NCBI GenBank assembly: GCA_017633255.1
Contig: JAGBPS010000024.1
Span: 80,592 to 144,591 of the forward strand
From: Bacteroidales bacterium
Lineage (GTDB): Bacteria; Bacteroidota; Bacteroidia; Bacteroidales; WCHB1-69
Direction of reading: 5' to 3'
Length of the DNA stretch: 64,000 nt
Part shown: one piece after another, positions 2,364 through 36,814 of the stretch
Numbering within the stretch: position 1 is the stretch's first letter
Layout: each line of letters starts with the position of its first letter
Notes under the pieces: generated by a model
What the model saw: only the letters and a program-made list of their open reading frames with translations
What the model was told of the DNA's origin: nothing
Database searches by the model: none
Made by a program: the position numbers and the translations under genes

Positions 2364-2374
2364 AAACTATCAAT

Positions 2375-5230: not shown

Positions 5231-5241
5231 TTTTCGAGTTG

Positions 5242-6214: not shown

Positions 6215-6222
6215 TATCTTTG
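6215..6222 (+). promoter_or_regulatory. -7 box TATCTTTG
   Basis: Exact TAnnTTTG 19 nt upstream of the ATG at 6241. Confidence 0.5.
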
Positions 6223-6240
6223 CATTTGTAATTAGATATT

Positions 6241-7533: not shown

Positions 7534-7544
7534 TTTTTTAAAAT

Positions 7545-7742
7545 CGCAGATTTTTTTCCATAGAATCGCAGATTTTTTTCTTTAAATTTGAAGATTTTTT
7601 ATTGCAAATTCGCAGATTATATTTTATAAAATTGAAGATTTTTTATCATAGATTCGTAGATTTAATTTTATAAAATCGCAGATTTTTTTATTTATATTTG
7701 AAGATTTCTTGTCGTAGAATCGCAGATTTTTAATATCTTTGC
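7545..7742. repeat. Nine-unit tandem array with exact 22-bp period
   Basis: The core hexamer CGCAGA/TGAAGA/CGTAGA followed by a T-run starts at 7545, 7567, 7589, 7611, 7633, 7655, 7677, 7699 and 7721, always 22 bp apart. The last unit overlaps the -7 box of the downstream gene. Confidence 0.85.
7734..7741 (+). promoter_or_regulatory. -7 box TATCTTTG
   Basis: Exact TAnnTTTG 22 nt upstream of the ATG at 7763, inside the last 22-bp unit. Confidence 0.5.
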
Positions 7743-7762
7743 AGCGTCTAATACAATAAGTT

Positions 7763-12780
<5,018 letters not shown>

Positions 12781-14250: not shown

Positions 14251-14276
14251 AATCTTCAAAATTATTGCATAAAAAA

Positions 14277-14309
14277 AGAGGATGACTAAAAATAGTCATC
14301 CTCTTTTTT
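14277..14309. terminator. Bidirectional rho-independent terminator
   Basis: 11-bp perfect stem AGAGGATGACT (14277-14287) / AGTCATCCTCT (14294-14304). An A-run precedes it and a T-run follows, between convergent ahcY and the giant ORF. Confidence 0.8.
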
Positions 14310-14328: not shown

Positions 14329-17300
14329 TTACTTCTTCACCACTTTCTTTACAGCCAATACATTATCATTGGTGACAAGCTTAATGAAATACACTCCACT
14401 AGCATAGCGAGACATGTCGATTTGTGTAGTCAGCATAGGTGTTTCATGAGGTATCTCTGACATCTCCAGTAATTTTCCGTAGATATCATACACCTGAATT
14501 TCCACAATTCCTGATGGTTCGTTATCCATTGATAACTGCAAATTAATATTGTCCGTCGTAGGATTTGGATATACATTCACAGTAGCCGACATAGAATGGT
14601 CGTCAATGCCCGTTAAAACAGTGAGGTGTAACACAATGATAGAGTCGCAGCCTGCTTCTGTTGTGAGATAGAAGGTATAATCTCCGCTTTCTACACTACC
14701 CGGCTCAAAGGTGGTATCACCGTATGTGTATGGGAGATCGCTTTCATTAATAGTCAAGTAATATTCAACAGTTACCGATTCATTGACAATCAGATGCAAG
14801 GTCACCACCGAATCACAGCCATTGGCCGCCATGAATGTCTGGGTGTAATCGCCACTTTCGGTATAGCTTGTTCCATTCCACTCGTAGCTGTCGCAAGCAG
14901 TGACTTCTACCATTTCCGTCACAGAGTTATTGACGGTCAAGGTCATGGTCACGACAGAGTCACAACCATTAACGCTTTGCAAAGTTACGGTCTGGGTACC
15001 AGCTTCAGTGAAGGTAACACCGTTCCAAGTGTACGGCAGCTCGCTTTCGCAGATAGTTTGGTTGTCGGTCACTGCATAGGCCGATAAAGTCGTCAAGGTC
15101 ATGGTAACGATGGAGTCGCAGCCATTAACGCTTTGCAGGGTCACGGTCTGGGTACCAGCTTCTGTGAAGGTTACACCGTTCCAGATGTAGGGCAACTCGC
15201 TTTCGCAGATGGTTTGGTTGTCGGTCACTGCATAGGTCGGTAAAGTCGTCAAGGTCATGGTAACCACAGAGTCGCAGCCATTAACGCTTTGCAGGGTCAC
15301 AGTCTGGGTACCTGCTTCAGTGAAGGTGACACCGTTCCAGGTGTAAGGCAGCCCGCTTTCGCAGATGGTTTGGTTGTCGGTCACTGCATAGGTCGGTAAA
15401 GTCGTCAAGGTCATGGTAACCACGGAGTCGCAGCCATTAACGCTTTGCAAGTTAAGGGTCTGCGTGCCGGCGGTACTAAAGACAACTCCATTCCATGTAT
15501 AAGGCAGTTCACTTTCGCAAATGCTCATCGACAGGTTGTTCGAGTATGAAGGATTCACCAACAGGGTCATGATTACTGTAGAGTCACAACCTGCGGCATC
15601 CTGTAAAGTCGCAGTATTCACGCCGGCGGCATTGAAGGTGACACCATTCCAAGTATAAGGCAGCTCGTTTTCACAAATAGTCTGGCTGTCCGTTGTAACA
15701 TGTGTCTGGTTAACCGTCAGGAGCATAGTCACCACAGAGTCACAACCATTGACAGTTTGCAAGGTTACAGTCTGCGTACCTGCGGTGCTGAAGACAACAC
15801 CATTCCATGTATAAGGCAACTCGCTCGGGCATACACTTCTGATGTCGGTCACCGAATAAGTCGGTAAGGTCGTTAAGGTCATGGTAACAACAGAGTCGCA
15901 GCCATTGACCGTCTGCAGGTTAAGGGTCTGCGTGCCGGCAGCGTTGAAAACGACGCCATTCCAGGTATAAGGCAGTTCACTTTCGCAAATGCTCATTGAC
16001 AGGTTATTCGAGTATGAAGGATTCACCGACAAGGTCATGATTACAGTGGAGTCACAGCCACTGGCATCTTGTAAGGTTGCAGTATTCACGCCGGCGGCAT
16101 TGAAAGTGACACCATTCCAGGTATAAGGCAGCTCGTTCTCACAAATAGTCTGGCTGTCCGTTGTAACATGTGTCTGGTTAACCGTCAGGATCATAATGAC
16201 AAGGGAATCACAACCATTGACAGTTTCAAGGGTTACATTCTGCGAACCTGCGCCACTGAAAACAACACCATTCCAAGTGTAGGGCAGCTCGCTAGGGCAA
16301 ACACTTCTCACATCCGTTACCGTGTAAGTTGGATTTACAGTAAGCGTCATCGTAACCACAGAGTCGCAGCCATTGGCAGCCTGCAAGGTCACCGTTTGCG
16401 TACCAGCAACGTTGAAGACGACGCCGTTCCAGGTGTAGGGCAATTCGCTCTGACAGATGGTCTGCTCATCGTTCACAGCGTAAGTCGGATTGACGGTCAG
16501 AGTCATCGTCACGACGGAGTCGCAGCCATTGGCAGCCTGCAAGGTCACCGTTTGCGTGCCAGCAACGTTGAAGTCGACACCATTCCAGGTGATGGGCAAT
16601 TCGCTCTGACAGATGGTCTGCTCATCGTTCACAGCATAGGTCGGGTTGACAGTCAGAGTCATGGTCACCATAGAGTCGCAACCGTTAGTAGCCTGCAAGG
16701 TTACCGTTTGTGTGCCAGCCTGAGTAAACTCAACACCATTCCAGGTGTAGGGTAATTCGCTCTGACAGATGGTCTGCTTATCGTTCACAGCGTAGGTTGG
16801 GTTGACAGTCAAGGTCATCGTCACCACAGAATCGCAGCCATTGGCAGCCTGCAAGGTCACCGTTTGAGTACCAGCAACGTTGAAGACGACGCCGTTCCAG
16901 GTGTAAGGCAATTCGCTTTCGCATACGGTCTTGGTATCGGTCACCGCATAAGTCGGATTAACAGTCAGGGTCATCGTCACGACAGAGTCGCAACTGTTGG
17001 CAGCCTGCAAGGTTACTGTTTGCGTGCCAGCTTGGCTGAACTCTACGCCGTTCCATGTGTAGGGCAATTCGCTCTCGCATACGGTCTTGGTATCGGTCAG
17101 CGCATAAGTCGGATTAACAGTCAAGGTCATCGTCACTACAGAGTCGCAACTGTTGGTAGCCTGCAAGGTCACCGTCTGTGTGCCAGCCTGGGTAAACTCA
17201 ACACCATTCCAAGTGTAGGGCAACTCACTCTCGCAAATGCTCTTGCTGTCGCTCACCGCAAAGGTCGGATTAACAGTCAGAGTCATCGTCACTACAGAGT

Positions 17301-20300
17301 CGCAACCGTTGGTAGCCTGCAAGGTCACCGTTTGTGTGCCAGCCTGGCTGAACTCTACGCCGTTCCAAGTGTAGGGCAACTCGCTTTCGCAGACGGTCTT
17401 GGTATCGCTCACCGCAAAGATCGGATTAACAGTCAGAGTCATCGTCACTACAGAATCGCAACTGTTGGCAGCCTGCAAGGTCACCGTTTGCGTGCCGGCC
17501 TGGCTGAACTCTACGCCGTTCCAAGTGTAGGGCAACTCGCTTTCGCAGACGGTCTTGGTATCGCTCACCGCAAAGGTCGGATTAACAGTCAGAGTCATCG
17601 TCACTACAGAGTCGCAACTGTTGACAGCCTGCAAGGTCACCATTTGAGTGCCAGCCTGGGTAAACTCTACGCCGTTCCAAGTGTAAGGCAGTTCGCTCTC
17701 GCATACGGTCTTGGTATCGGTCACCGCATAAGTCGGATTAACAATCAGGGTCATCGTCACCACAGAGTCGCAACCAGAGACAGACGGCAAGGTAACAGTT
17801 TGGGTACCGGCCTGAGAGAACTCTACGCCGTTCCAAGTGTAGGGCAGCTCGCTCTCGCATACGATCTTGGTATCGGTCACCGCAAAGGTCGGATTAACAG
17901 TCAGGGTCATCGTCACCACAGAGTCGCAGCCAGAAGCAGATGGCAAGGTAACAGTTTGGGTACCGGCCTGGGTGAACTCTACGCCGTTCCAGGTGATGGG
18001 TAATTCGCTCTCACAGATGCTCTTGCTGTCGGTCACTGTGTAAATTGAGTTGATGGTAAGATGCATGGTCACGACAGAGTCACAGCCATTAACTGTTTGC
18101 AGAGTGACCGTCTTATCACCGGCGGCATTGAATATGACACCGTTCCATGTATAAGGAAGAGCGGCAGGACATACATCGCGGCTTTCGGAGACACTGTAAA
18201 TTGGGTTCACGCTGAGAGTCATCGTCACGACAGAGTCGCAATCAGTAGAGGACTGCAAGGTAACGTCCTTTGTACCTGCAGTGGTAAAGACAACTGTATT
18301 CCAAGTGTAAGGCAACTCGCTCTCACAAATGGTCTTGGTGTCGCTCACCGCATAAGTCGAATTAACAGTCAAAGTCATCGTCACCACAGAGTCACAGCCG
18401 GAGACAGTCGGCAAGGTCACCATTTGCGAACCAGCTTGGGTAAACTCTACGCCGTTCCAGGTGTAAGGCAACTCGCTCTCGCAAACGGTCTTGGTATCGC
18501 TCACCGCATAGGTTGGTAAAGTCGTTAAGATCATGGTAACGACAGAGTCACAGCCGTTAGCGGCCTGCAAGTTCAGCGTTTGCGTACCAGCTTGGGTGAA
18601 TTCTACGCCGTTCCAAGTGTAAGGCAACCCGCTCTCGCAGATGGTGTCTTTAATTGTAATGTTATAACTTTCCTTTTCATGTACGGTAAAGCTTCCATGC
18701 GCCACTTCATCGCCAATGGCGTTGTACACGGTTACAGAGTAGTTGCCAACAGGTACGGTGATGGCTTGACTCGTCTCGCCGGTGTTCCACAAGTAGTCGG
18801 TTCCCAAATTAGTGTTGACATGCAGAACAGTGGTCTGGTTCGGGCAGATGCTGTCATCGCCTGTGATGTAGAAGTAGGGCGGGATAACCACAGGTTCGGT
18901 AGTGAAGCTTATCACGTCGCTCCAGTCGCTGGTGCCATCAACACCGCAATTAGCACGAACCTTGACCGTGTATGGTGTTTCAGGGCTGAGTCCATTCAAA
19001 GTGTAGGGGTTCGTGGTAACATCGATGAGATTGGTTTCGTTGCCGTTGACGCAGATTTGCCATTCGGTGGCGTTGCCGTTCTCGGTCCACGTTAATGTGG
19101 CATTCACATCGGAGATGTTGCTTGCAGCTAAATTCGCAGGTGCGGGACAAGTCACACTCGGTGCGGACCCGTTAGCCATGAACAGACCAGAGATGTTGGC
19201 ACCGGTGCCGCCACCAATGTAGCCAATAAGTTGCTTTTCGGCAGTAGCGGGGTTCACCAAGTATAATCCGTTATCATTTGAAGAACTCATTTGTCCCATA
19301 AGCATTTCGCCAGTATTCATGTCAAAGGCGATATATGGCATGGTGCTGGAAAATCCAAGGTTTCCAACAGGAGTGATGGTAGCGTCGGTCAGATTCACTT
19401 GGCAGAGGTTCCCTGTCATCATATCCGTACAATAGGCATTGCCATTGCTGTCGATGGCAATAGACAATGCGTAACTGTTGAATGTGCCAATCTCTGTGAC
19501 ATCGTTGATATTGGAAGGATCGAAACTTTTCAGTTTCACTATCTGACTAGAAGTGTAAAGAATATAATAGATTCGTCCGTCAACAGGATTGTAGGACATG
19601 GAGGCAATGTCATTATTGTTGCCCTCAAAATTGGATGCTACTGTCTCGTAAGTTCCCATCGTTTTATTGTAATTGTCAAGTGGAGCTTTGTAAAGGTTTG
19701 TATTGTTTTCGTCGAAGAACCATACTACTCCATTGACACAGGTAGCCGCTAATGAATACGGGGTTATATCTGAGGCTACTGTCACGGTAGCCGGATCTTG
19801 CGCTGAAAAACTGATGAACTTCTTTCGCAAATCGACGTTGTTGGGACTTCTTTGGACGCATGCGTACCAGTTGGCAGTGGAGCGGACTTTCGCAAAAGAG
19901 AAAGGTACACTCCAGAAACTGTAGTCACTACCACAGTTGGCACGTACTTTTACGTTGTGGAAAATGGTGGTATCAAGTCCAGATAGTGTGTAAGGATTTT
20001 CAGTAACATTGATAGGATTGGCCTCATCGCCGTCAAGACAAAGCTGCCATGCTGTGGCGCTACCATTCTCTGTCCAGCTTACTGTGGCAGTTCCTCCGTT
20101 GAGATTGGAGACAGTAAGGTTATCTGGAGTAGGACAGGGACTGCTGGCACAGTTTACCATGTGTGTAAAAGGAGTAAGGAAAGGACCAACTCCACCGAAA
20201 ATCTCGATTCCATTGGCATCATACACGTTATAGGAAGTTTCATTTGCATCAGCACCGTTTACCCATTCGAAGCGGATTTCGCGGCCATTGCACACAAAGA

Positions 20301-23300
20301 GAGATCCTGTGGCGGTACTTCCGTAGTCGATAGTCCAGCTAGCTAAAACAATACCGCTGGTAATATCCACCACGTTGATGGCATTGCCTGTCCAGCCGTC
20401 ACCGTATGTGTCACCCAATACGTAGGTGATTTCGCACTGATCTTCGACCTGACAGGAATTGGTGGTGAAATTAATGCTGTTCCAGTAACTTTCGCCGTCA
20501 ACGCCACAGTCGGCTTTCACCCGCACGTGGTATTCGGTTTCGGGGGTGAGTCCGGTGAGGAGGCAACTGTTTGTGGAAACAAATGTGGTGAAGGAACCGG
20601 AAAAGTCAGCGGCTGTACTGTATTCCACAATCCAGCTGTTGGCATTGCTGTTGTTGTCCCAGATAATCCTGGCTTTGTTCATCCCATTTTCGGATACAGT
20701 CAGGTTGGTGGGCTTTGCGCAGTTTATGCCAAAGTTCAGACGGACACAGTTTTTCTCAGAATTGTAGTCGCCTATGATGTTGTTGGGGAACATCGGGTCG
20801 TAACCGGAACCGTTACGGTAGGCGTATATGGCTTGCAATTCCGTAGTGTGGAAGGTGTGACATCCTATACCGGGCGCGCTGGTGCCCGTCTTGTCGTTCA
20901 TAACGAGCAAAAGGTTTTCGGTGCCATTGTAGTTGAACGGGACATCGAGCGCGAACTCGGTCCAACTGCCAGCCGTCAGCTCAATGGGGCCGCTGAACAC
21001 AAGGTCGGCGGGGGTTACGGCTACCCAGTCGACGTTGTCGCTGAAGGTCGTCTTGTTCGTGTGTACGAGGTACATATCGTAGTTGCGGATTTGGCTTGTG
21101 CCTGCATTATAGAAGGATATGCCGAAAATGGTACCCGTACGGTTGATTTCTGAAGCTGTATAGATTTGTTGGGATATAGAATAATTGGAACTTGAGTTGA
21201 CCGGGAGGTAGTTGCCGCCTCCAGTACAAGTTCCGATTTCGGTGATATTGGGGTTCGCAGGGCAGTTCACTGTATAAGAGACGGGGGTGCTCATAGCGTT
21301 GCTGCCGCTGAAGATAATGTTCCCCTCCACATCATAAACCGTGTAGGATGTCTCGTCGGCAGAGGAGCCGTTCACCCACTCGAAGCGGATGTCGCGGCCG
21401 TCGCATATGGGCAGGGTGCCCGAAAGGCTGTCCCCATAGTTTATGGTCAACGTGCCAAAGACAAAGCCGGTGGCGACATCCACCACGTTGATGGCGCAGT
21501 CGTTCCAACCGTCGCCGAAGCTGTCCGCCAGTTTATAGCTGATTTCGCATTGGTCGGAACCTTCGCAAATATCAGTGGTGAAACTGCGGGTGGTCCAGTA
21601 ACTTTCGCTGCCAGCACCGCAGTCGGCTTTTACCCGAACGTGGTAGGTGGTTCCGCCGACAAGTTCGTTAAGATGACAACTGTTCGATGCTGTCGTTACG
21701 GCCGTGGCATTGGAGAAGTCGGGGAGGGTGGCGTATTCCACGACCCAGCCACTGGCATTGGCGTTGGTGTCCCAGCTAAGTGAGGCGTTGTGCGTAGAGA
21801 TGGAAGTAATCTCAAGGTTGGTCGGCGCATAGCAGACTTGTGCCGAACCGCTGGCCATAAATAGATGTGTGTGGTAAATGTCGGGTTCTCCACCAATATA
21901 ATTCAACTCCTGTTTGGCTGCGGTAGCGGGGTCCACGGAGCAGATTATGTTGCCGGTGTTAGAAAGGGATATGCAGAAGAGTTCGTCGGTTTCCATGTCA
22001 AAAGCCAATACTTCAACATCTGGGAGGTATCCCACTAGGGTGACGGAGGCATTGGTCAGATTCATCCTGTATAGGCTGTCATTTTGGGCAACACAGTATG
22101 CATCTCCAAGTCTGTTAATGGAAATGCTATTGATATCTTGGGCGTATGTGCCGATTGCCGTAATCGTACTCGGATTGGCGGGATCGAAGCTCTTGAGCTT
22201 GTAGTCGCCGCCCACATAGTACAATTTGTCGTCAATGGGATTGTATGTCATACAGAAAATGTCAGCCGTGTCAAAATTCTCCTTTACGGTTTCGAAATTT
22301 CCGATGGTCTTGTTGACATTGTCCAGAGGTGCACGGCCAAGGTCAATCGTACCTTGGTTATAGTTATAGTTGGTGTACCACACATATCCGTTGGCGTATG
22401 CAGTGGAGGTAAAATAGTTGTTGATCAGCTCCGAAGCGGTGCTTGCGGAGGTAAGGTTTTGCATAGAGAAACTGACATATTTGTTCATCCAAGAGTAGTG
22501 GGTTGGGGATGACGTTACAAGGCTGTACCAGTTGGCGGTGGATTGGAGGTCGAAGAGGATGAAGGAGGTCTCGACCCAATCGCTTTGGTGACTGGTATCG
22601 CATACGGCCTTCACTCTTGCCTGGTAGCTCGTGTAATCCAGACCGCTGAGCGTGATGGCGTTGCCTGTGGCGCTGGTCTGCTGCCATAGCGTGTCGGAAG
22701 TCTTCTTGTACTCCACATTGAAGTCCGTGGCATTGCTAGTCCACGTCAGGGTGACTTCATTATGGTTGGTGGAGGCGGTGAGATTCTTGGGCTTCGGACA
22801 AACTGTGCCGAAGTTCAATTGGATGCAGTTTTTCTCATTCAGGAGGGAACCATAATATGAGCCGGGAGTTGATGGGTAAAAATTGGGGTCATCATCGTTG
22901 ATGTACAGGGCTTGCGGATCCGTAGAGGCGAAAGTGTGGCAACTCATACTACTGCTCCAGGAACCGGTGTTGTCATCCACCACAAGCAGTAGATTGTCGG
23001 TGCCGTTGTAGGCGAAAGGCACATCCAGGTCTATAGGTGTCCATTCGTCGGTTTTCATCTCAATATTGCCGCTGAACACCAAGTTGGCGGCGGTGACAGA
23101 AACCCAATCGTTGACACTGCTGAAGCTCGTTTTGTTGGTATGGACGAGGTATACGTCATAGTTGCGGGTTTTGGCGTCTCCGCTGTTGTAGAAGGAAACA
23201 CTGGAGATGGAACCGGGACGGCCGATTTCCGCTGCCGTATAAATCTGCTGCGACAGGCCGTAATTGTAGTAGGCGTCGCTCGGCAGTTGATCGTTTCCAG

Positions 23301-26300
23301 AAGTGCAGGTGCCGATGGAAATTAGTTCTGGCAACACCGGGCAGATTACGGTATAAGGGAGTGGAGCACTCATGGCGCCGCTGCCGTTGAAGATAATGTT
23401 CCCCTCTGCATCATAAACCGTGTAGGATGTCTCGTCGGCAAAGGAGCCGTTCACCCACTCGAAGCGGATGTCGCGGCCGTCGCATATGGGCAGGGTGCCC
23501 GAAAGGCTGTCCCCATAGTTTATGGTCAACGTGCCAAAGACAAAGCCGGTAGCGACATCCACCACGTTGATGGCGCAGCCGTTCCAACCGTCACCGTAGC
23601 TGTCCGCCAGACTATAGCTGATTTTGCATTGATCTGAGCTTTCGCATAAAGTAGTGGAGAAACTGCGGACGGTCCAGTAACTTTCGCTGCCAGCACCGCA
23701 GTTGGCTTTTACCCGAACGTGGTAGGTGGTTCCGCCGACAAGCCCGGTAAGAAGACAACTATTTGTCGTGGTCGTCACGGCCGTGGCATTGGAGAAGTCG
23801 GGGAGGGTGGCGTATTCCACGACCCAGCCGCTGGCATTGGCGTTGGTGTCCCAGGTGAGCGTGGCGTCGTTCATAGCGATGGAAGAGAAGTCAAGGTTAG
23901 TCGGCGCATAGCAGACTTGTGCCGAACTGCTGGCCATAAATAGATGTCTGAGGATAATGTCAGGGTCTCCACCCACATAGGTCAACTCCTGTTTGGCTGC
24001 GGTAGCGGGGTCCACGGAGCAGATTATGTGGCCGTTGCTAGAAAGGGATATGCAGAAGAGTTCGTCGGTTTCCATGTCAAAAGCCAATACTTCAACATCT
24101 GGGAAATATCCCACGGTGGTGACGGAGGCATTGGCCAGATTCATCCTGTAGAGGCTGTCATCTTGGGCAACACAGTAAGCCTCCCCAAGTCTGTTGATGG
24201 AAAGGCTCTTGAAATCTTGGGCGTATGTGCCGATTGCCGTAATCGTACTCGGATTGGCGGGATCGAAGCTCTTGAGCTTGTAGTCGCCGCCCACATAGTA
24301 CAATTTGTCGTCAATGGGATTGTATGCCATACTGAAAACGTCAGTCGTGTCAAAATTCTCCTTTACGGTCTCGAAATATCCGATGGTCTTGTTGACATTG
24401 TCCAGAGGTGCACGGCCAAGGTCAATCGTGCCTTGGTTATAGTTATAGTTGGTGTACCACACATATCCGTTGGCGTATGCATTGGATGTAAAATAGTTGT
24501 TGATCAGTTCCGAAGCGGTGTTTGCGGAGCTGATATTCTGCATAGGGAAACTGACGTATCTGTCCGTCCAGTTGGAGTGAGCCGTGGATGAGATGACGAA
24601 GCTGTACCAGTTGGCGGTGGATTGGAGGTCGAAGAGGATGAAGGAGGTCTCAACCCAATCGCTTTGGAGATTGGTATCGCATACGGCCTTCACTCTGGCT
24701 TGGTAGCTCGTGTAATCCAGACCGCTGAGCGTGATGGTGTTGCCCGTGGTGCTGGTCTGCTGCCATTGCGTGTCGGTAGTCTTCTTGTACTCCACATTGA
24801 AGTCCGTGGCACTACTACTCCACGTCAGGGTGACTTCATTATGGTTGATGTTGGAAACTGCGAGATCTTTGGGCTTCGGGCATATCGTGGTAAAGTTCAA
24901 TTGGATGCAGTTTTTCTCACTCACCAGGGAACCATTATATGAGCCAGGAGCTGTCGGGTCAAAATTGGAGTTGTCGTTATTGATGTACAAGGCTTGCGTA
25001 TTTGTGGTCGTAAAGGAATAACAACTCATACTGCTGATCCAGGAGCCTGTGTTGTCATCCATTACAAGCAGTAGATTGTCAGTGCCATTGTAGGCGAAAG
25101 GCACATCCAGGTCTATAGATGTCCATTCGTCGGTCTTCATCTCAACATTGCCGCTGAACACCAGGTCGGCAGCGGTGACGGGAACCCAATCGTTGGTACT
25201 GCTGAAGCTCGTTTTGTTGGTATGGACAAGATATATGTCATAGTTGCGGTTTTGGGCATCGCTGCTGTTGTAGAGGGAGATGCTGGAGATGGAACCGGAA
25301 CGGCTGATTTCCGCTGCCGTATAGATCTGCTGTGACAGGCCGTAGTCGTTATAGGTGTTGCTCGGCAAGTTTTTGCTCCCTGTGCTGCAGGAGCCGAGAC
25401 CCACTATGTTGGCAGTGCCGCTGACCATAAATAACCCGAGAGCAACAATATAGTCGTCATCGCCAAGATAGCCAATATCCTGTACGGCGGCAGTGGCGGT
25501 ATCTACCAACCCCATCGTGTAGCCGTTGCCTATAAAGCGCGAGCAGAACAACTCGTCGGTTGTGTCGTCGAATGAGAGGAAGACAGCCTGTGTCAGATTT
25601 CCCACGAAGGTGAGGGAAGCGTCGGTCATATTCAGGCGGTAGAGTGAGCCGCTTAATTCATCGTAGGCGTACGCCTCACCCCGGCTGTTGAAGGCGAGGT
25701 CGCGGATATAGATGCTGGGGGAGACTGTGCAAACCGTTGAGACATTGTCGGGAGAGGAGGGATGGAAACTTTTGACTGTATGGTTGTTTGAGACATAGTA
25801 GATTTTGCCGTCTGCCGGGTTGTATGACAGACCCTCCATAAAGTCGGTTTCAAAAACACTTCTTACGGTGTCGAAAGCCCCAATGATGCGGGTGTCGTTA
25901 TCCATCGGTGCCCGGAGCAGACAATAGTGATGACTTGGGTCGTAGCTGGTGGCCCACACGTATCCGTCGGCGTAGGTGATGGAAGGTTGTGAAAACGTCT
26001 GGGCGGCGGAAACTGGTGTTCCTATGGTGATGTCCTGCATAGAGAAGGCGACGCATTTGTCTGACCAATCATAATGATCGAAACTGGAAGTCACATACGT
26101 GTACCATTTGGAGGTGGATTGGATGTTGAGGATGGGGAATGTGATGCTTCTCCAGTCGCTTTCGGAAACACCGGGCGTGCAGACGGCCCGCACACGTGCT
26201 TCGTAATCGCCCATATCCATACCGCTGAGCGTGACTGAATGGGTCGTGGTGGTGAGGCTGTGCCACGTCGTTTCATTGGTCTTCTTGTATTCGACATTGA

Positions 26301-29043
26301 AGTTGGTGGCGTTGCATTCCCAGGTCAGGGTGGTGTTGTGCTGGTTGTCATAGGTGACGGTAAGGTTGTAGGGTTTCTGACAGGTCGGAGTCATCCTCAG
26401 TTGAAGACAATTGGCGGCGGGCGTGGTGAAGCCCGGGTAGTTGGACAGTGTCAGAGGATTGTAATTTTCGGAATAGCCGCAAGAGTACATAGATTTGTTG
26501 CCAGGACTCAAACCTACAAATGAGCTGCATAGCAAGTTGTTGAGGCGGGTTCCGGTGTTGTCGTCCGTAAGCACCACAAGATTGTCGGTGCCGTTGTAGG
26601 AGAACGGGACGTCGAGGGTGATCTCCGACCAGACATTCGTTTGCAGCGTGACATTGCCGCTGAACACGAGATCGGTGGCAGTGACCGGCACCCAGTCGTC
26701 GCCATAGAATTCCGTTTTGTTGGTGTGGACGAGGTAAATGTCGAGGTTGCGGGTCACCGCGGAACCGGTGTTGAAGAATGAGATGCTGTTGATGATGCCG
26801 GCATCGCCGATTTCCGTTGCCGTGTATATCTGTTCTGAGATGGTGTAGTCGAATTGGCTGGCGCTGGGTAAGAAACTTTGAGTGCTCGAGCAAGAACCGA
26901 CATTCACCAAAGTGGCGCTGGAGTTGGGGATCATAAACAATCCTTTGCAAACAATGTTGGTGTCTCTACCGAGAAAACCAATGCTTTGCATATCAGCGGT
27001 GACGGGATCCACCAGCCACATCTGATATCCACCGTTGGAATTCTGAGCTGAGCAGAACAGCTCGCCGGTGGTCAGGTCAAAAGCCAGATAGGACCCGGTT
27101 GAAATGCTCCCCACGGAGGTGTATGAAGCGTCCGTCAGATTCAAGCGGTAGAGTTTCCGACTGCCATAATCTCCGATGATGAACGCCTCCCCCTGGTTGT
27201 TGAAGGCGATGCTGACGATGCTGAGGTTGTCGACGTCGCAAACCACCGTCTTCACGTCCGGTGAGGAGGGATGGAAGCTCTTGACTATATGTCCGCTCAT
27301 AACGTAGTAGATTCTGCCATCGATGGGATTGTACGACATACATTCAACAAAGTTGTCTTCGAATGCACTCTTTACGGTTTCGAAAGCCCCAATGGTCCGG
27401 GTGGTGTCGTTTATCGGTGCCCGGAACAGGTCGTGATGTTGCTGATTATAATTATAGTTGGCGGACCACACGTACCCGTCGGCGTAGGTGATGGCCGGGA
27501 TGGTGTATGGCAAGTTCGATGAAGCTGTCGCGCCCGAGTCAAGGTCCTGCATCGAGAATGTGACGTATTTGTTTGACCATTCAGAATGGACGGCGCTCGA
27601 AAATACGCGCGTGTACCAGTTGGCGGTGGATTGGATGTTGATGATGGTGAATGCGGTGGTCCCCCAGTTGCTCTCGTAAACGCCGGGGTCGCAGATGCCC
27701 TTCACGCGGACGTTGTAGTCGCCCACGGCCAGATTGCTGAGCGTGACCGAGTTGCTTGTGGTGGTGAGACTCTGCCACGTAGTATCGTTGGTCAGCTTGT
27801 ACTCGACAATGAAGTCCGTGGCGTTGCAGTCCCAAGTCAGAGTGGCTTCGCGCTGGAGATTGTTGCAGGAAATGTTGAAGTTGTGAGGAGACTGACACTG
27901 CATCAAGGCAAATCCCAACAGGAGATAGTTCTTCGCACTCATCAGATTGCCGGAAAAATAGGGGGGAGGATTAAAATTCGCAGAACTATAGGTTAAAAGA
28001 GCTTGGTTCGGGCCATCGTAAGATAAGAAATAGTGGGAGCTTGGCTCGGAACCACCGGTATTATCTTCCATCATAACCAGAAGATTGTCGCTGCCGTTGT
28101 AGTCGAATGGGGTGTCAAACTCGATAATGGTCCAGTTGAGTCCAGCGAAGGTCACATTGCCGCTGAACACACGGTCGGCGGCGGTCACAGTTGTCCAATC
28201 CATATTGCTGCTGAAAGCATTTTTGTTAGTGTGTGCCAGATAAAGGTCGATGTTGCGAGTCATCGTACCATCGGTGTTGAAGAACCCAATGCTGCGGATT
28301 GTGCCCGACCGCCCGATTTCGGCGGGCGTATAGATTTGCTCTGACAGGGAATAATTCACTTGTGCCTGTGTCGGCAGAACTTCCATAAATTGGTTATGGC
28401 CGATTTCCACGAATGTCTCGTTAGTGCCGTCCGCCGTAGTGAGGCTCACTTCGTTGCTCCAGTAACTCTCACCGGTGGCACCGCAGTTTGCGCGAACTTT
28501 TACGTAGTAGGTGGTGTTAGGGGTAAGGCCAGAACACGAATAGGAGGTGTCGTTGGTGGTTATTAATTGGGCTAAGTTAAAGTCTGGATTTTTGCTGAAA
28601 GAAACCTCCCAGTCGTCGGCACCACCGGGCTGGCTCCAACTTATAACGGCGTTGGTGAGGCCGACGTTGGCGGTGAGGTTGGTGGGAGTAGGACAGCCTC
28701 CCGTGGTGGTGAAACTTACCACGTCGCTCCAAGAACTTTCATACCAAGTGCCAGGACACTCATATTTGACGTGCACATAATAGATTTTCCCCGCGGTAAG
28801 GCCAGTCAACTGGACGGATGGTCCTGAGGGATAATCGTTGTAGCGCATATGAAAATCAGAATAGAGACTGTATTGAACGTCACGCCAGGTGACGCCGCTC
28901 GGCTCTACCCAGGTCAAATCGGCAGTGTGGTCGGTGATGTTTGAGACGGTGAGGTTGGTGGGGGCGGAACATGACTGTGCGCGCAGCCCGGCCGGCAATA
29001 ATAACCCGACCAATACACATAAAAACAAAGTAAATTTTCTCAT
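14329..29043 (-). CDS. Giant (4,904 aa) repetitive secreted/cell-surface protein with T9SS C-terminal sorting domain
   Basis: One uninterrupted ORF. Signal peptide MRKFTLFLCVLVGLLLPAGLRA|Q (28975..29043), two FN3-like modules (about 28435..28974), five composite supermodules, and 24+2 tandem 52-aa repeats (14614..18639). The C-terminal VNVYPNPTTDNINLQ...GVYFIKLV sorting domain lies at about 14332..14580. Confidence 0.9.
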   Translation of the reverse strand: MRKFTLFLCVLVGLLLPAGLRAQSCSAPTNLTVSNITDHTADLTWVEPSGVTWRDVQYSLYSDFHMRYNDYPSGPSVQLTGLTAGKIYYVHVKYECPGTWYESSWSDVVSFTTTGGCPTPTNLTANVGLTNAVISWSQPGGADDWEVSFSKNPDFNLAQLITTNDTSYSCSGLTPNTTYYVKVRANCGATGESYWSNEVSLTTADGTNETFVEIGHNQFMEVLPTQAQVNYSLSEQIYTPAEIGRSGTIRSIGFFNTDGTMTRNIDLYLAHTNKNAFSSNMDWTTVTAADRVFSGNVTFAGLNWTIIEFDTPFDYNGSDNLLVMMEDNTGGSEPSSHYFLSYDGPNQALLTYSSANFNPPPYFSGNLMSAKNYLLLGFALMQCQSPHNFNISCNNLQREATLTWDCNATDFIVEYKLTNDTTWQSLTTTSNSVTLSNLAVGDYNVRVKGICDPGVYESNWGTTAFTIINIQSTANWYTRVFSSAVHSEWSNKYVTFSMQDLDSGATASSNLPYTIPAITYADGYVWSANYNYNQQHHDLFRAPINDTTRTIGAFETVKSAFEDNFVECMSYNPIDGRIYYVMSGHIVKSFHPSSPDVKTVVCDVDNLSIVSIAFNNQGEAFIIGDYGSRKLYRLNLTDASYTSVGSISTGSYLAFDLTTGELFCSAQNSNGGYQMWLVDPVTADMQSIGFLGRDTNIVCKGLFMIPNSSATLVNVGSCSSTQSFLPSASQFDYTISEQIYTATEIGDAGIINSISFFNTGSAVTRNLDIYLVHTNKTEFYGDDWVPVTATDLVFSGNVTLQTNVWSEITLDVPFSYNGTDNLVVLTDDNTGTRLNNLLCSSFVGLSPGNKSMYSCGYSENYNPLTLSNYPGFTTPAANCLQLRMTPTCQKPYNLTVTYDNQHNTTLTWECNATNFNVEYKKTNETTWHSLTTTTHSVTLSGMDMGDYEARVRAVCTPGVSESDWRSITFPILNIQSTSKWYTYVTSSFDHYDWSDKCVAFSMQDITIGTPVSAAQTFSQPSITYADGYVWATSYDPSHHYCLLRAPMDNDTRIIGAFDTVRSVFETDFMEGLSYNPADGKIYYVSNNHTVKSFHPSSPDNVSTVCTVSPSIYIRDLAFNSRGEAYAYDELSGSLYRLNMTDASLTFVGNLTQAVFLSFDDTTDELFCSRFIGNGYTMGLVDTATAAVQDIGYLGDDDYIVALGLFMVSGTANIVGLGSCSTGSKNLPSNTYNDYGLSQQIYTAAEISRSGSISSISLYNSSDAQNRNYDIYLVHTNKTSFSSTNDWVPVTAADLVFSGNVEMKTDEWTSIDLDVPFAYNGTDNLLLVMDDNTGSWISSMSCYSFTTTNTQALYINNDNSNFDPTAPGSYNGSLVSEKNCIQLNFTTICPKPKDLAVSNINHNEVTLTWSSSATDFNVEYKKTTDTQWQQTSTTGNTITLSGLDYTSYQARVKAVCDTNLQSDWVETSFILFDLQSTANWYSFVISSTAHSNWTDRYVSFPMQNISSANTASELINNYFTSNAYANGYVWYTNYNYNQGTIDLGRAPLDNVNKTIGYFETVKENFDTTDVFSMAYNPIDDKLYYVGGDYKLKSFDPANPSTITAIGTYAQDFKSLSINRLGEAYCVAQDDSLYRMNLANASVTTVGYFPDVEVLAFDMETDELFCISLSSNGHIICSVDPATAAKQELTYVGGDPDIILRHLFMASSSAQVCYAPTNLDFSSIAMNDATLTWDTNANASGWVVEYATLPDFSNATAVTTTTNSCLLTGLVGGTTYHVRVKANCGAGSESYWTVRSFSTTLCESSDQCKISYSLADSYGDGWNGCAINVVDVATGFVFGTLTINYGDSLSGTLPICDGRDIRFEWVNGSFADETSYTVYDAEGNIIFNGSGAMSAPLPYTVICPVLPELISIGTCTSGNDQLPSDAYYNYGLSQQIYTAAEIGRPGSISSVSFYNSGDAKTRNYDVYLVHTNKTSFSSVNDWVSVTAANLVFSGNIEMKTDEWTPIDLDVPFAYNGTDNLLLVVDDNTGSWSSSMSCHTFASTDPQALYINDDDPNFYPSTPGSYYGSLLNEKNCIQLNFGTVCPKPKNLTASTNHNEVTLTWTSNATDFNVEYKKTSDTLWQQTSATGNAITLSGLDYTSYQARVKAVCDTSHQSDWVETSFILFDLQSTANWYSLVTSSPTHYSWMNKYVSFSMQNLTSASTASELINNYFTSTAYANGYVWYTNYNYNQGTIDLGRAPLDNVNKTIGNFETVKENFDTADIFCMTYNPIDDKLYYVGGDYKLKSFDPANPSTITAIGTYAQDINSISINRLGDAYCVAQNDSLYRMNLTNASVTLVGYLPDVEVLAFDMETDELFCISLSNTGNIICSVDPATAAKQELNYIGGEPDIYHTHLFMASGSAQVCYAPTNLEITSISTHNASLSWDTNANASGWVVEYATLPDFSNATAVTTASNSCHLNELVGGTTYHVRVKADCGAGSESYWTTRSFTTDICEGSDQCEISYKLADSFGDGWNDCAINVVDVATGFVFGTLTINYGDSLSGTLPICDGRDIRFEWVNGSSADETSYTVYDVEGNIIFSGSNAMSTPVSYTVNCPANPNITEIGTCTGGGNYLPVNSSSNYSISQQIYTASEINRTGTIFGISFYNAGTSQIRNYDMYLVHTNKTTFSDNVDWVAVTPADLVFSGPIELTAGSWTEFALDVPFNYNGTENLLLVMNDKTGTSAPGIGCHTFHTTELQAIYAYRNGSGYDPMFPNNIIGDYNSEKNCVRLNFGINCAKPTNLTVSENGMNKARIIWDNNSNANSWIVEYSTAADFSGSFTTFVSTNSCLLTGLTPETEYHVRVKADCGVDGESYWNSINFTTNSCQVEDQCEITYVLGDTYGDGWTGNAINVVDITSGIVLASWTIDYGSTATGSLFVCNGREIRFEWVNGADANETSYNVYDANGIEIFGGVGPFLTPFTHMVNCASSPCPTPDNLTVSNLNGGTATVSWTENGSATAWQLCLDGDEANPINVTENPYTLSGLDTTIFHNVKVRANCGSDYSFWSVPFSFAKVRSTANWYACVQRSPNNVDLRKKFISFSAQDPATVTVASDITPYSLAATCVNGVVWFFDENNTNLYKAPLDNYNKTMGTYETVASNFEGNNNDIASMSYNPVDGRIYYILYTSSQIVKLKSFDPSNINDVTEIGTFNSYALSIAIDSNGNAYCTDMMTGNLCQVNLTDATITPVGNLGFSSTMPYIAFDMNTGEMLMGQMSSSNDNGLYLVNPATAEKQLIGYIGGGTGANISGLFMANGSAPSVTCPAPANLAASNISDVNATLTWTENGNATEWQICVNGNETNLIDVTTNPYTLNGLSPETPYTVKVRANCGVDGTSDWSDVISFTTEPVVIPPYFYITGDDSICPNQTTVLHVNTNLGTDYLWNTGETSQAITVPVGNYSVTVYNAIGDEVAHGSFTVHEKESYNITIKDTICESGLPYTWNGVEFTQAGTQTLNLQAANGCDSVVTMILTTLPTYAVSDTKTVCESELPYTWNGVEFTQAGSQMVTLPTVSGCDSVVTMTLTVNSTYAVSDTKTICESELPYTWNTVVFTTAGTKDVTLQSSTDCDSVVTMTLSVNPIYSVSESRDVCPAALPYTWNGVIFNAAGDKTVTLQTVNGCDSVVTMHLTINSIYTVTDSKSICESELPITWNGVEFTQAGTQTVTLPSASGCDSVVTMTLTVNPTFAVTDTKIVCESELPYTWNGVEFSQAGTQTVTLPSVSGCDSVVTMTLIVNPTYAVTDTKTVCESELPYTWNGVEFTQAGTQMVTLQAVNSCDSVVTMTLTVNPTFAVSDTKTVCESELPYTWNGVEFSQAGTQTVTLQAANSCDSVVTMTLTVNPIFAVSDTKTVCESELPYTWNGVEFSQAGTQTVTLQATNGCDSVVTMTLTVNPTFAVSDSKSICESELPYTWNGVEFTQAGTQTVTLQATNSCDSVVTMTLTVNPTYALTDTKTVCESELPYTWNGVEFSQAGTQTVTLQAANSCDSVVTMTLTVNPTYAVTDTKTVCESELPYTWNGVVFNVAGTQTVTLQAANGCDSVVTMTLTVNPTYAVNDKQTICQSELPYTWNGVEFTQAGTQTVTLQATNGCDSMVTMTLTVNPTYAVNDEQTICQSELPITWNGVDFNVAGTQTVTLQAANGCDSVVTMTLTVNPTYAVNDEQTICQSELPYTWNGVVFNVAGTQTVTLQAANGCDSVVTMTLTVNPTYTVTDVRSVCPSELPYTWNGVVFSGAGSQNVTLETVNGCDSLVIMILTVNQTHVTTDSQTICENELPYTWNGVTFNAAGVNTATLQDASGCDSTVIMTLSVNPSYSNNLSMSICESELPYTWNGVVFNAAGTQTLNLQTVNGCDSVVTMTLTTLPTYSVTDIRSVCPSELPYTWNGVVFSTAGTQTVTLQTVNGCDSVVTMLLTVNQTHVTTDSQTICENELPYTWNGVTFNAAGVNTATLQDAAGCDSTVIMTLLVNPSYSNNLSMSICESELPYTWNGVVFSTAGTQTLNLQSVNGCDSVVTMTLTTLPTYAVTDNQTICESGLPYTWNGVTFTEAGTQTVTLQSVNGCDSVVTMTLTTLPTYAVTDNQTICESELPYIWNGVTFTEAGTQTVTLQSVNGCDSIVTMTLTTLSAYAVTDNQTICESELPYTWNGVTFTEAGTQTVTLQSVNGCDSVVTMTLTVNNSVTEMVEVTACDSYEWNGTSYTESGDYTQTFMAANGCDSVVTLHLIVNESVTVEYYLTINESDLPYTYGDTTFEPGSVESGDYTFYLTTEAGCDSIIVLHLTVLTGIDDHSMSATVNVYPNPTTDNINLQLSMDNEPSGIVEIQVYDIYGKLLEMSEIPHETPMLTTQIDMSRYASGVYFIKLVTNDNVLAVKKVVKK
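14614..18639 (-). repeat. Intragenic tandem array of 24 canonical 156-bp (52-codon) units plus two degenerate units
   Basis: Canonical units span 14896..18639 (24 x 156 bp, in frame). Consensus: CESELPYTWNGVEFTQAGTQTVTLQAANGCDSVVTMTLTVNPTYAVTDTKTV. Two diverged copies (CDSYEWNG..., NESDLPYTYG...) fill 14614..14895. Confidence 0.95.
21250..25410 (-). repeat. Intragenic tandem duplication of a roughly 2.08-kb (693-codon) supermodule
   Basis: Anchor strings recur at an offset of exactly 2079 bp (GACATCC at 21475 and 23554; GTAGTCGCCG at 22201 and 24280). The encoded units are mostly identical by eye. Confidence 0.85.
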
Positions 29044-29104
29044 AATTTTGTATTTTTATTTTTTTTCATTTGCTTCATTATGCAAAGCATAAATTTTGCG
29101 GCCG

Positions 29105-29112
29105 CAAAAATA
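29105..29112 (-). promoter_or_regulatory. -7 box TATTTTTG (minus strand) upstream of the giant ORF
   Basis: Plus-strand CAAAAATA is an exact TAnnTTTG on the minus strand, about 62 nt upstream of the ATG at 29043. It overlaps the palindrome TTTTGCGGCCGCAAAA. Confidence 0.4.
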
Positions 29113-29358
29113 AGCAAATAATTGACAAAAAAACAGGGTTAATTGTTAAAATGACAGCCCTAAAACCCAACAAATTCAATATATACAAAAGTAAAATTAA
29201 CACCCCCGCATCAGAACTCCCTTGCCGCCCTCCCCACACCTCACTTTTTTCGGTCATCTGGTGCTGAAATATTGGAAGATTTTGCCTTCAAAATACCGCA
29301 ACAATGATTCAAAATCATTTTTTTGTCATTATTTGTTTCATTATCAAAAAAAATACTT

Positions 29359-29366
29359 TAACTTTG
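29359..29366 (+). promoter_or_regulatory. -7 box TAACTTTG upstream of hppA
   Basis: Exact TAnnTTTG about 86 nt upstream of the ATG at 29452. Confidence 0.4.
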
Positions 29367-29451
29367 CAAATTCATTTGAGCATTTTCGTGGAAAATGCCC
29401 TGATGATTTTGTTCTATGCTTATAATTACATATTAATCAATATTATAAACT

Positions 29452-31851: not shown

Positions 31852-32646
31852 ATGCAAATGCGAAAAATAAAAGTCCTCATACTGATCCTGTCGTTGATGC
31901 CGTTTGGGCTTGTTGGGCAGACTATCAAGCCCGACAAGAACTTTGTCGATTCGGCATCAACGATGGTGTGGACTGAGGTCAACATGTCGTGGCAGTTTCC
32001 TGTCGGCGGCCTCCGCGAGTTATTCAAGATGAACGGCAGCGTGGGTACCAGTATCACTGTCAAGACAGCATCCAACTGGCTGTTTGGCATCAGCGGCAAC
32101 TATTGTTTCGGCGCCGCCATGCGCGATAACACCGTGTTGGACAACCTGAAGGACCACAACGGCTATACCTTTAACTCAGATGGCACCTGCAACCAGGATT
32201 ATCTGGACAAGGAATTGGAAGGCCGCTATTGGTATGTGGGAGCCGGCTTTGGTTACGTAATTCCCGTCAACCGCTGGAAAAACTCCGGTATCCGACTGTA
32301 CGCCGACTTCGGCGTCGCCCAACACAAGATACACATGGGTAGCCAGGCAGCTGACTATGTACCCATGCTGCGCGGCGAATACAAGAAGGCTTATGACCGC
32401 CGCTCAACGGGTTTCCACATGTCGCAATCGGTGGGCTACCTGTTCATCCAGCGAATACGTGTGGCCAGCTTCTATGTCGGCCTCGAGTTCCACGAAATGT
32501 GGACCAAACCCGACCGCAATTACATACTTGGTGTTGGTCCCACCGATGAAATCAAGACCAAATTCAGCGGCCTGATAGGCATCAAAGCAGCCTGGATTAT
32601 CCCGCTGTATGAAAAGAAAAAGGTTTCCACTTTCTATACTTTCTAA
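31852..32646 (+). CDS. Hypothetical outer-membrane beta-barrel-like protein
   Basis: 264 aa. Signal peptide (MQMRKIKVLILILSLMPFGLVGQ), alternating aromatic/Gly-rich strands, C-terminal ...STFYTF. It begins 7 nt after the hppA stop. Confidence 0.55.
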   Translation: MQMRKIKVLILILSLMPFGLVGQTIKPDKNFVDSASTMVWTEVNMSWQFPVGGLRELFKMNGSVGTSITVKTASNWLFGISGNYCFGAAMRDNTVLDNLKDHNGYTFNSDGTCNQDYLDKELEGRYWYVGAGFGYVIPVNRWKNSGIRLYADFGVAQHKIHMGSQAADYVPMLRGEYKKAYDRRSTGFHMSQSVGYLFIQRIRVASFYVGLEFHEMWTKPDRNYILGVGPTDEIKTKFSGLIGIKAAWIIPLYEKKKVSTFYTF

Positions 32647-35878: not shown

Positions 35879-36814
35879 ATGAAAAAACTATTATTTTTAC
35901 TGGCAGCCGTGATGCTGATGACGGCATGTGGAAACAAGGAAAAACAGCTGCAAGAACGTGCGGCGGAACTGTGCAAATACATCCCCGACCATGAGCTGCT
36001 GGAGCAGTCGAAAGACTATATGACTGAGGATTTTTACAATGTGCTCGACACGATGTTCAACCACCTTCCCCAGCACGAGGCCATGGATCACGAATGGCTC
36101 TATTATTTTGTGACCGGCAACGGCGGCACCATTGCCGACTACACAGTGGTTGGTGTGGAGCAAACTGACGACACCCACGCTGTCGCCACCATCAGTGTGC
36201 GCCAAAAATGGGAGGACGGCTCATTTGACGAATCCACCGATGTGGAGGAACACAAGCTCTATATGGAGAAAGTGGGTGACGTGTGGCTCATGTGCGACTT
36301 CGATGGACACAAGGCCGACTGCATCAATTACATCGCCAATAATCGCGAGGAACAAGTCGTAAGACAAGCCATCAGCGACTATCTGGTGAAGGAGATTGGC
36401 TCCCAATATGCGCAAGGCGATATTTGCATCCCCACCCTGATGATGGTGGCAGAAGAGGATTGTGAAACAGAGATTGCATTCGTTTGGGGCGATTTCTGGG
36501 TGTTTTGGTACAATGTTTCAGGAGACACGCTAAAGTGCGTCTCGGGCGGAAACCACTCGGGACGTATGACAATCAGTGAACTTGCGTATCCACAATATTA
36601 CGTCAGTGCTTTTTGGCAGACCGAAGACGGTGCCGGCAATGAAAAAAGTGCCCGTGAAATCTTCGGCAAACACTATGATGTTTACCAGAACATGCATTCC
36701 AACGAGGAAGTGCGCGAAGCCGTCCGCAAGGAACAGCTGCAATGGTACGTCAAAAGCCATAACCTCAAGGTCCGCTATTACCAAGACTTCGGCTGGCCCG
36801 CAGTCGAATTATAA
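35879..36814 (+). CDS. Hypothetical lipoprotein
   Basis: 311 aa. Lipoprotein signal MKKLLFLLAAVMLMTAC|GNKE. No catalytic motif recognised. Confidence 0.6.
   Translation: MKKLLFLLAAVMLMTACGNKEKQLQERAAELCKYIPDHELLEQSKDYMTEDFYNVLDTMFNHLPQHEAMDHEWLYYFVTGNGGTIADYTVVGVEQTDDTHAVATISVRQKWEDGSFDESTDVEEHKLYMEKVGDVWLMCDFDGHKADCINYIANNREEQVVRQAISDYLVKEIGSQYAQGDICIPTLMMVAEEDCETEIAFVWGDFWVFWYNVSGDTLKCVSGGNHSGRMTISELAYPQYYVSAFWQTEDGAGNEKSAREIFGKHYDVYQNMHSNEEVREAVRKEQLQWYVKSHNLKVRYYQDFGWPAVEL

Follow-up and report, generated by a model that had tools for sequence, protein, structure and literature searches.

The stretch of DNA analysed here, a 64-kb window (64,000 nucleotides) of contig JAGBPS010000024.1 from a Bacteroidales bacterium, carries on its minus strand one gene for a giant protein, which is probably a very long, multivalent and non-enzymatic adhesin fibre displayed on the surface of an uncultured rumen Bacteroidales bacterium, with a stalk made of short repeats (R) and with heads at the distal end composed of three kinds of module (A, C and G). 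This reading is based on the architecture of the protein and on the domains that accompany its modules in related proteins, from which we infer its surface anchoring, the roles of stalk and heads, the binding function and the nature of the ligand. The multivalent adhesin is the best-supported explanation because of the fold classes of modules A and C, the non-catalytic, adhesin-type partner domains of the relatives and the rumen-restricted distribution.

Layout and integrity of the giant protein

The giant protein is very probably a type IX secretion system (T9SS) cargo, as had been proposed by an earlier, sequence-only reading of the window, which recognized a Por_Secre_tail-type sorting domain. 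This domain matches PF18962 at aa 4824-4902 with E 1.2e-13 and 51.6 bits, where the cut-off is 27, and it scores 40.8 bits with the type A model TIGR04183, whose cut-off is 23. At the other end, the chain starts with a signal peptide, recognized by inspection as MRKF, a hydrophobic core and LRA, with a Gln after the predicted cleavage site, followed by two fibronectin type III (FN3) domains, in agreement with the same reading. The predicted mature protein has about 522 kDa, a pI of 4.1 and 130 Cys.

Hidden Markov models (HMMs) built locally from the giant protein's own copies place five copies of module A (180 aa), five of module C (238 aa), three of module G (110 aa) and 26 of the repeat R (52 aa), the last comprising 24 canonical and two degenerate units, exactly the 24+2 copies of a two-Cys repeat that had been counted earlier. 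After the signal peptide and the two FN3 domains, the heads run in the order A1-FN3-C1, A2-FN3-C2, A3-FN3-C3-FN3-G1, A4-FN3-C4-FN3-G2 and A5-FN3-G3-FN3-C5, followed by another FN3 domain, an 87-aa segment, the 26 R units and the sorting domain. Motif counts agree with this map: S[EQ]QIYT and HTNK occur five times each (aa 234, 736, 1237, 1931 and 2624), as do STxxWY, YNPxD..YY and GLFM, while GDGW and FEWVNG occur three times each (aa 1817, 2510 and 2881). The five supermodules described in the sequence-only reading stand, except that the fifth has the order A-FN3-G-FN3-C and not A-FN3-C-FN3-G. Regarding the linkers, Pfam fn3 is found in ten stretches of the whole protein (237 bits), all 11 inter-module linkers (75-90 aa) match fn3 or fn3-like Pfam models when taken singly, and eight of the ten segments scanned pass the fn3 cut-off of 25 bits alone. 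Only these fn3-type domains and the sorting domain are named by Pfam and NCBIfam; modules A, C, G and R and the 87-aa segment gave nothing usable even at E<=10, in agreement with the sequence-only reading, which could not assign the modules to named families, and the label 'Ig-like' given to the 87-aa segment is unverified. The coordinates are collected in Table 1.

Table 1. Features of the giant gene, its flanks and one related locus (positions in the window unless stated otherwise)
Feature	Position	Strand	Basis or remark
Giant-protein ORF	14329..29043	minus	ATG start, 4904 codons, uninterrupted
Signal peptide	28978..29043, aa 1-22 (MRKFTLFLCVLVGLLLPAGLRA, then Q)	minus	Inspection of the translation only
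Two N-terminal FN3 domains	28420..28977, aa 23-208	minus	Pfam fn3, two stretches, E 3.8e-18
Head region, five supermodules	19165..28419, aa 209-3293	minus	Local HMM map and fn3 on every linker
Module A copy 3 (modelled copy)	24862..25413, aa 1211-1394	minus	AF2 pLDDT 94.2
Module A, other copies	27877-28419, 26362-26916, 22780-23325, 20701-21246	minus	Local HMM
Module C copy 3 (modelled copy)	23923..24633, aa 1471-1707	minus	AF2 pLDDT 95.2
Module C, other copies	26920-27642, 25414-26130, 21844-22554, 19165-19890	minus	Local HMM
Module G copy 1	23326..23658, aa 1796-1906	minus	Cys frame and DSYGDGWNG...FEWVNG...ETSY
Module G, other copies	21247-21579, 20134-20466	minus	Local HMM
Last FN3 domain	18904..19164, aa 3294-3380	minus	Pfam fn3, E 2.6e-11
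87-aa unassigned segment	18643..18903, aa 3381-3467	minus	No family match at E<=10
R array, putative stalk	14605..18642, aa 3468-4813	minus	24 canonical and 2 degenerate 52-aa units
Type A T9SS C-terminal sorting domain	14332..14574, aa 4824-4904	minus	Por_Secre_tail and TIGR04183
Hairpin, 17-bp stem, A/T-run flanks	14272..14309	.	Between the convergent stops of the giant gene and the AdoHcy hydrolase gene
Upstream intergenic region, AT-rich, 408 bp	29044..29451	minus	Common to the divergent H+-pyrophosphatase gene
P0069 neighbourhood (another genome)	Loci L016-L019, genes at 1-7877 and 8001-8846		Peptidase_C25 / Cleaved_Adhesin cluster

The single uninterrupted 14.7-kb open reading frame (ORF) that had been reported is confirmed, and an identical protein is present in NCBI (MBO6051364.1), from a metagenome-assembled genome (MAG) annotated as Bacteroidales bacterium. 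Three other assemblies contribute full-length versions to its 90% cluster; these have 4852, 4800 and 4749 aa and lie on contigs of 29-139 kb. When the four full-length versions are aligned, the first 3460 aa are collinear, 98-100% identical and free of indels, except for one signal-peptide residue in one variant, and the lengths differ only because whole R units of exactly 52 aa are deleted at aa 3721, 4126 and 4532. Each orthologue lacks one unit at one, two or three of these positions, the deletion at aa 4126 being common to all three. The comparison of orthologues for module number, which the sequence-only reading had called for, therefore gives the same head order and one to three fewer R units. 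These deletions are either strain-level variation of stalk length or a recurrent collapse of short reads at the same units, and only the exact copy number of R stays exposed to short-read error.

A chimeric ORF arising from mis-joined repeats, or a pseudogene, was also considered, as the gene has long internal repeats: supermodules 3 and 4, which are a recent duplication, are 88% identical over 2079 bp and contain exact repeats of at least 100 bp, and in one MAG the giant gene is split across two contigs. However, the four versions from independent assemblies are intact, collinear and differ by in-frame 52-aa units, and no pair of R units is identical in DNA (at most 94%). Besides, when paralogous copies are compared, the ratio of nonsynonymous to synonymous substitution rates (dN/dS) amounts to 0.24-0.48 in A, C, G and FN3 and to 0.06-0.35 in R, indicating purifying selection on every module copy. 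An assembly artefact or pseudogene is therefore very unlikely, and the artefact that the sequence-only reading had allowed for can be regarded as largely refuted.

Modules A, C, G and R and their relatives

The structure prediction and Foldseek comparison suggested earlier were carried out for modules A and C, resulting in a β-sandwich for A and a propeller for C. Module C had been guessed to be a β-propeller from its motifs, and its AlphaFold model, obtained with 15 sequences, is confident, with a predicted local distance difference test score (pLDDT) of 95.2, a predicted template-modelling score (pTM) of 0.91 and 19 strands. Foldseek returned 1236 matches in the PDB at E<=1e-3, and 49 of the 50 best are proteins containing a β-propeller, headed by propellers of the TolB, Kelch and YWTD types and by designed six-bladed ones (TMq 0.53-0.64, E about 1e-8). 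Module C is thus confirmed, at the level of the predicted structure, as a compact β-propeller; the number of strands, with a faint periodicity of 41-47 aa inside the module, suggests that it would have about five blades. Concerning its sequence, no match above cut-off was obtained with the named propeller families WD40, Kelch, SBBP, DUF4394, YWTD/LDL-B and TolB; below it stand DUF4394 (16.8 bits against 29.6, E 0.0045) and SBBP (15.8 against 20.5), and the sequence-profile search of the PDB gave only weak WD40 matches (best E 0.003). Its conserved residues are W9, Y10, W59, Y104-N105-P106, K121-S122-F123 and E191.

Module A, modelled from an alignment of 125 sequences, is an all-β sandwich (pLDDT 94.2, pTM 0.89), with Y26, Q31, E37, D77, W99, Y110 and N115 as conserved residues. 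In the PDB, Foldseek found nothing for it at E<=1e-3, and a sequence-profile search gave no match. Phage tail-tip and baseplate domains, PHR domains and the Cwp84 lectin-like domain rank first, with template-modelling (TM) scores of 0.4-0.5, while GOLD domains and carbohydrate-binding modules (CBMs) rank lower (TM 0.23-0.33). Its likeness to CBM36, CBM29, CBM22, ConA-like lectins and the Cwp84 lectin-like domain is one of fold class only, with E 0.004-0.09 and TM 0.2-0.45. In BFVD, the best match is A0A6J5NL19, an uncharacterised Caudovirales protein that is a true homologue of module A (TMq 0.81, 26% identity, E 1.4e-12), and next come, with TM about 0.5, the tips of phage proteins of the collagen-repeat and minor-tail kinds. 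Relatives of module A in phages were found neither by a pattern scan of IMG/VR nor by tblastn against INPHARED.

Searching a word-indexed protein collection with a profile of the five copies gave at least 188 relatives of module A, including a large family of 270-285 aa with a signal peptide, A and Por_Secre_tail, as well as relatives encoded by a Fibrobacter MAG and by a Cloacimonadota genome, one relative with a dockerin and one with Cleaved_Adhesin. For module C the same search gave at least four relatives, two of them made of signal peptide, C and sorting domain; these counts are lower bounds, as the search listed only proteins below about 420 aa and omitted the 4,800-aa cluster representative of the query itself. 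Small proteins in which either A or C stands alone between a signal peptide and a sorting domain show the two modules to be autonomous units. The neighbours of the C plus sorting-domain gene were uninformative. A genome scan with the five-copy alignment of C as query, covering one genome per species, found relatives almost solely in Bacteroidales MAGs from the rumen of yak, goat and cattle.

Module G is widespread by exhaustive HMMER search, with 1,798 cluster representatives (50% identity) at E<=1e-3 and 698 at E<=1e-10, compared to no match in the word-indexed search. Its family consensus is C-x5-C-x-I-x-Y-x-L-x-D-S-Y-G-D-G-W-N-G-x-A-I ... C-x-G-R-x-I-x-F-x-W-x-x-G ... E-x-S-Y, and neither a 3-sequence nor a 36-sequence profile matched a PDB sequence, nor did Pfam or NCBIfam. 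In the literature search, no paper contained the motif 'YGDGW' or described modules A, C, G or R.

The R unit has two Cys, with the pattern C-x-S-E-L-P-Y-T-W-N-G ... G-C-D-S-V-V-T-M-T-L-T-V-N-P, and LPYTWN recurs 24 times at an exact spacing of 52 aa (aa 3473..4669). Tandem Repeats Finder reports a period of 156 bp at 14936-18645 and, in part of it, a higher-order period of 468 bp, which matches a three-unit duplication seen in the unit-by-unit identity matrix, where units 16-18 and 19-21 correspond; the pairwise DNA identity of the units spans 51-94%. No family in Pfam or NCBIfam and no PDB sequence matched R. Arrays of R-like units of two sub-types, CxSELPYxWNG and CDSYxWNGxTYTxSG, are present in other giant relatives.

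The modules are frequently combined. Among the best 150 proteins bearing G, 71 also carry A, ten carry R units and five carry C, and many giant proteins of rumen Bacteroidales MAGs are mosaics of A, C, G, R and FN3 in other orders. Because these relatives and mosaics recur, the giant gene is a member of a large uncharacterised family and not a one-off; its novelty was overstated by the sequence-only reading, as the modules lack names but are also present in other genes. Scanning 33 relatives that carry G, with or without A, Pfam identified fn3 in 31, Cleaved_Adhesin in 16, Por_Secre_tail in nine and MAM in five; further partners in G-bearing relatives are Flg_new_2, Lcl_C, BspA-type LRR_5, DUF2436, Laminin_G_3 and dockerin, with GEVED and Fib_succ_major added among all 46 relatives scanned (33 + 13). 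The position of R is constant: each of the 11 relatives that have it carries the array on the C-terminal side of all A, C and G modules, and in the three that were scanned it is followed by Por_Secre_tail (two) or by the Fibrobacter domain Fib_succ_major (one).

Two relatives can be described individually. The protein P0228 (2442 aa), presumably from Fibrobacter judging from its domain content, has Fib_succ_major at its C-terminus together with MAM, GEVED, G and an R array; another phylum would then carry the same modules on a C-terminal display or sorting domain of a different kind. The second is P0069, a small protein of A plus sorting domain from a Bacteroidales lineage that is unrelated; its gene comes after a pair of Peptidase_C25 genes and one gene with Cleaved_Adhesin, fn3 and DUF2436, an arrangement that resembles a gingipain locus outside Porphyromonas.

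Proposed function and genomic setting

In the proposed mechanism, the Sec signal peptide would bring the chain into the periplasm and the type A sorting domain would allow its passage through the T9SS across the outer membrane, where PorU would then remove the sorting domain and join the new C-terminus to anionic lipopolysaccharide (A-LPS), as in the species studied. For type A proteins, PorU cleavage followed by a covalent link to A-LPS is described in PMC9143113 and PMC4804311. Because a type A domain is cleaved and replaced by A-LPS in this way, the C-terminus would be located at the cell surface, forming the cell-proximal end of the protein. Since the R array stands directly upstream of this anchor, a place that it keeps in the relatives, its most plausible role is that of a spacer or stalk, whose length would change in 52-aa steps between strains. 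Meanwhile, the N-terminal 3,300 aa or so would project outward, exposing 13 putative binding domains (five A, five C and three G) on 11 FN3 spacers, and many weak contacts would sum to a strong attachment on a repetitive target. Glycans of plant particles or of microbial surfaces in the rumen are plausible ligands. Concerning the adhesin or ligand-binding fibre of the sequence-only reading, T9SS cargo and a beads-on-a-string build are supported here, and binding is suggested by this build together with the partner domains of the relatives.

A multivalent build would suit cross-linking equally well, and the protein could instead be a released agglutinin or matrix protein, shed after removal of its sorting domain and cross-linking cells, plant particles or biofilm polymers. 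This is unlikely, as the order of heads, R array and sorting domain in the 11 relatives is most simply explained by a cell-proximal stalk and as type A cargo is typically linked to A-LPS (PMC9143113).

It is still less probable that one or more of the unnamed modules are catalytic, with A, for instance, being a small jelly-roll hydrolase or C an enzyme of the propeller type, which would turn the protein into a giant surface degrader of polysaccharides or proteins. Module A does conserve polar residues across the 125 sequences (Q31, E37, D77, Y110 and N115), one of its relatives carries a dockerin, which is common on cellulosomal enzymes, and rumen Bacteroidetes are known to secrete multi-modular cellulases via the T9SS (PMC5831590). 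However, no catalytic Pfam domain (glycoside hydrolase, lyase or peptidase) was found in the giant protein or in the 46 relatives, where CE2_N, which is the N-terminal domain of carbohydrate esterase 2 and has no catalytic role, is the sole enzyme-associated match. Moreover, module A has no significant enzyme match in the PDB by Foldseek, and the best matches of module C are the non-catalytic TolB, Kelch and YWTD types and not those of GH32, GH43 or GH68.

Several observations weigh against the surface-anchored adhesin fibre. The likeness of the module A model to lectin and CBM folds is weak (TM 0.4-0.5, E > 1e-3) and amounts to a shared fold class; the copy number of R could partly stem from short-read collapse and not from strain variation; and the neighbourhood of C25 and Cleaved_Adhesin genes seen beside P0069 did not recur around the small A plus sorting-domain genes of three other lineages. 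In addition, type A cargo can be released into the medium rather than anchored, as reported in PMC10202324, the 64-kb window contains none of the T9SS machinery genes SprA/Sov, PorV, PorU and PorK-N, and the giant gene stands alone among housekeeping genes, its context being uninformative.

On one side of the giant gene, a GH2 β-galactosidase gene and the AdoHcy hydrolase gene are convergent with it, and the hairpin between the convergent stops is probably a bidirectional terminator. On the other side, the genes of the H+-pyrophosphatase and a Kdo transferase are divergent from it. In the intergenic region between the giant gene and the H+-pyrophosphatase gene, the element TATTTTTG was read in the sequence, with about 60 nt separating it from the giant gene's ATG; it is taken here as a putative promoter element from its likeness to the Bacteroidetes -7 motif TAnnTTTG. 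A phase-variable promoter was also considered and discarded, since the inverted repeats in the 408 bp upstream are all short, AT-rich and imperfect, the best of them having a perfect arm of 11 nt, and make no case for an invertible element.

Two further ORFs of the window have a sorting domain: one of 430 aa (6241-7533, plus strand), with Por_Secre_tail at E 1.4e-9, no other Pfam family and no A, C, G or R, which is a further uncharacterised T9SS cargo, and a 548-aa subtilase (Peptidase_S8) with Por_Secre_tail (33921-35567, minus strand), 5 kb from the giant gene, whose product would be a T9SS-secreted serine protease. Because of these two ORFs, there is indirect support for T9SS machinery in the host. 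Amid the housekeeping genes, the ORFs at 31852-32646 (plus strand, 264 aa) and 35879-36814 (plus strand, 311 aa) match no Pfam family at E<=1e-5. The sole Rfam and ARAGORN matches in the window are tRNA-Gln(CTG) at 5158-5230 (minus strand) and tRNA-Leu(CAA) at 42480-42564 (plus strand), and the listed 238-aa ORF at 4528-5244 is probably not a gene, as the tRNA-Gln overlaps it.

Beyond the giant protein, it can be put forward tentatively, as a rather doubtful extension, that A, G and C each represent a new family of domains binding glycans or surfaces, in effect new CBMs or lectins, and form an attachment toolkit exchanged between rumen lineages with differing display systems. For display, Bacteroidales would use the T9SS sorting domain, Fibrobacter would use Fib_succ_major, cellulosomal Firmicutes a dockerin and a phage a tail-protein homologue. 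If so, the protein would be a fibre-attachment organelle allowing the colonisation of plant particles independently of Sus-type loci, with a stalk length tuned between strains in 52-aa steps.

Comparison with known systems

Giant repetitive T9SS adhesins are already an established class, and no concept is overturned by this gene, which would be unsurprising to a specialist. The widespread A and G families and the rumen-specific mini-propeller C nevertheless merit curation and testing. For fibre to be digested in the rumen, microbes attaching to the feed particles is a key step, and the responsible proteins of the abundant uncultured Bacteroidales are largely unknown. Modules A (at least 188 relatives), G (about 1,800 clusters) and R are families frequent in metagenomes that lack a Pfam or NCBIfam model and a solved structure; defining them would better annotate thousands of proteins now labelled 'fibronectin type III domain-containing', and the models of A and C are direct starting points for binding screens.

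Like the giant protein, SprB and RemA of Flavobacterium johnsoniae are very large and repetitive, possess a T9SS C-terminal sorting domain and are displayed at the surface. Its size and repetitiveness, together with the S-layer-like role proposed in the sequence-only reading, bring up a SprB-type gliding-motility adhesin or an S-layer component, either of which is highly improbable. SprB has a type B domain and SprB repeats and moves on the gliding track, whereas the giant protein has a type A domain and unrelated heads; type B is the class of SprB-type adhesins (PMC9143113, on how type B proteins are anchored), and the Pfam and NCBIfam scans gave no match to the SprB repeat or to type B. Similarly, the S-layer-like option has no support, as no S-layer or lattice-forming family was found and the protein is one long, heterogeneous chain of about 520 kDa. 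The known T9SS S-layer proteins, TfsA and TfsB of Tannerella, are unlike such a chain.

The adhesin regions of the gingipains and HagA of Porphyromonas gingivalis also belong to type A T9SS cargo and consist of shuffled, repeated modules, a domain rearrangement documented for these proteins (PMC5266723). Their β-sandwich adhesin modules are Cleaved_Adhesin and DUF2436, which the relatives of the giant protein combine with G and A. The giant protein itself differs from them, as it has no C25 domain and gave no match to Cleaved_Adhesin (PF07675) or DUF2436 (PF10365), either over its full length at E<=0.1 or with its modules taken singly at E<=10, and solved gingipain adhesin structures are not among the top 50 PDB matches of module A. 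Its partner domains assign it, together with the gingipains and HagA, to one wide pool of shuffled T9SS adhesin modules.

In adhesins of the type I secretion system such as MpIBP, LapA and SiiE, a long array of near-identical extender domains (BIg) holds the ligand-binding domains away from the cell. The giant protein has the same design, with a different secretion system, repeat family and polarity: in MpIBP, LapA and SiiE the anchor is N-terminal and the heads are C-terminal, and this order is reversed in the giant protein. Regarding the single modules, the nearest structural neighbours of module A are the receptor-binding tips of phage tail fibres and minor tail proteins (TM about 0.5), and module C superposes on the six-bladed TolB, Kelch and YWTD propellers, platforms for protein or ligand binding, yet is much smaller, with 238 aa and 19 strands. 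Taken by its predicted domains, the giant protein would be placed inside the class of T9SS type A cargo and outside the SprB, Cleaved_Adhesin and DUF2436 families, and what it adds to the known systems is three or four uncurated domain families, two of which (A and C) have confident fold assignments.

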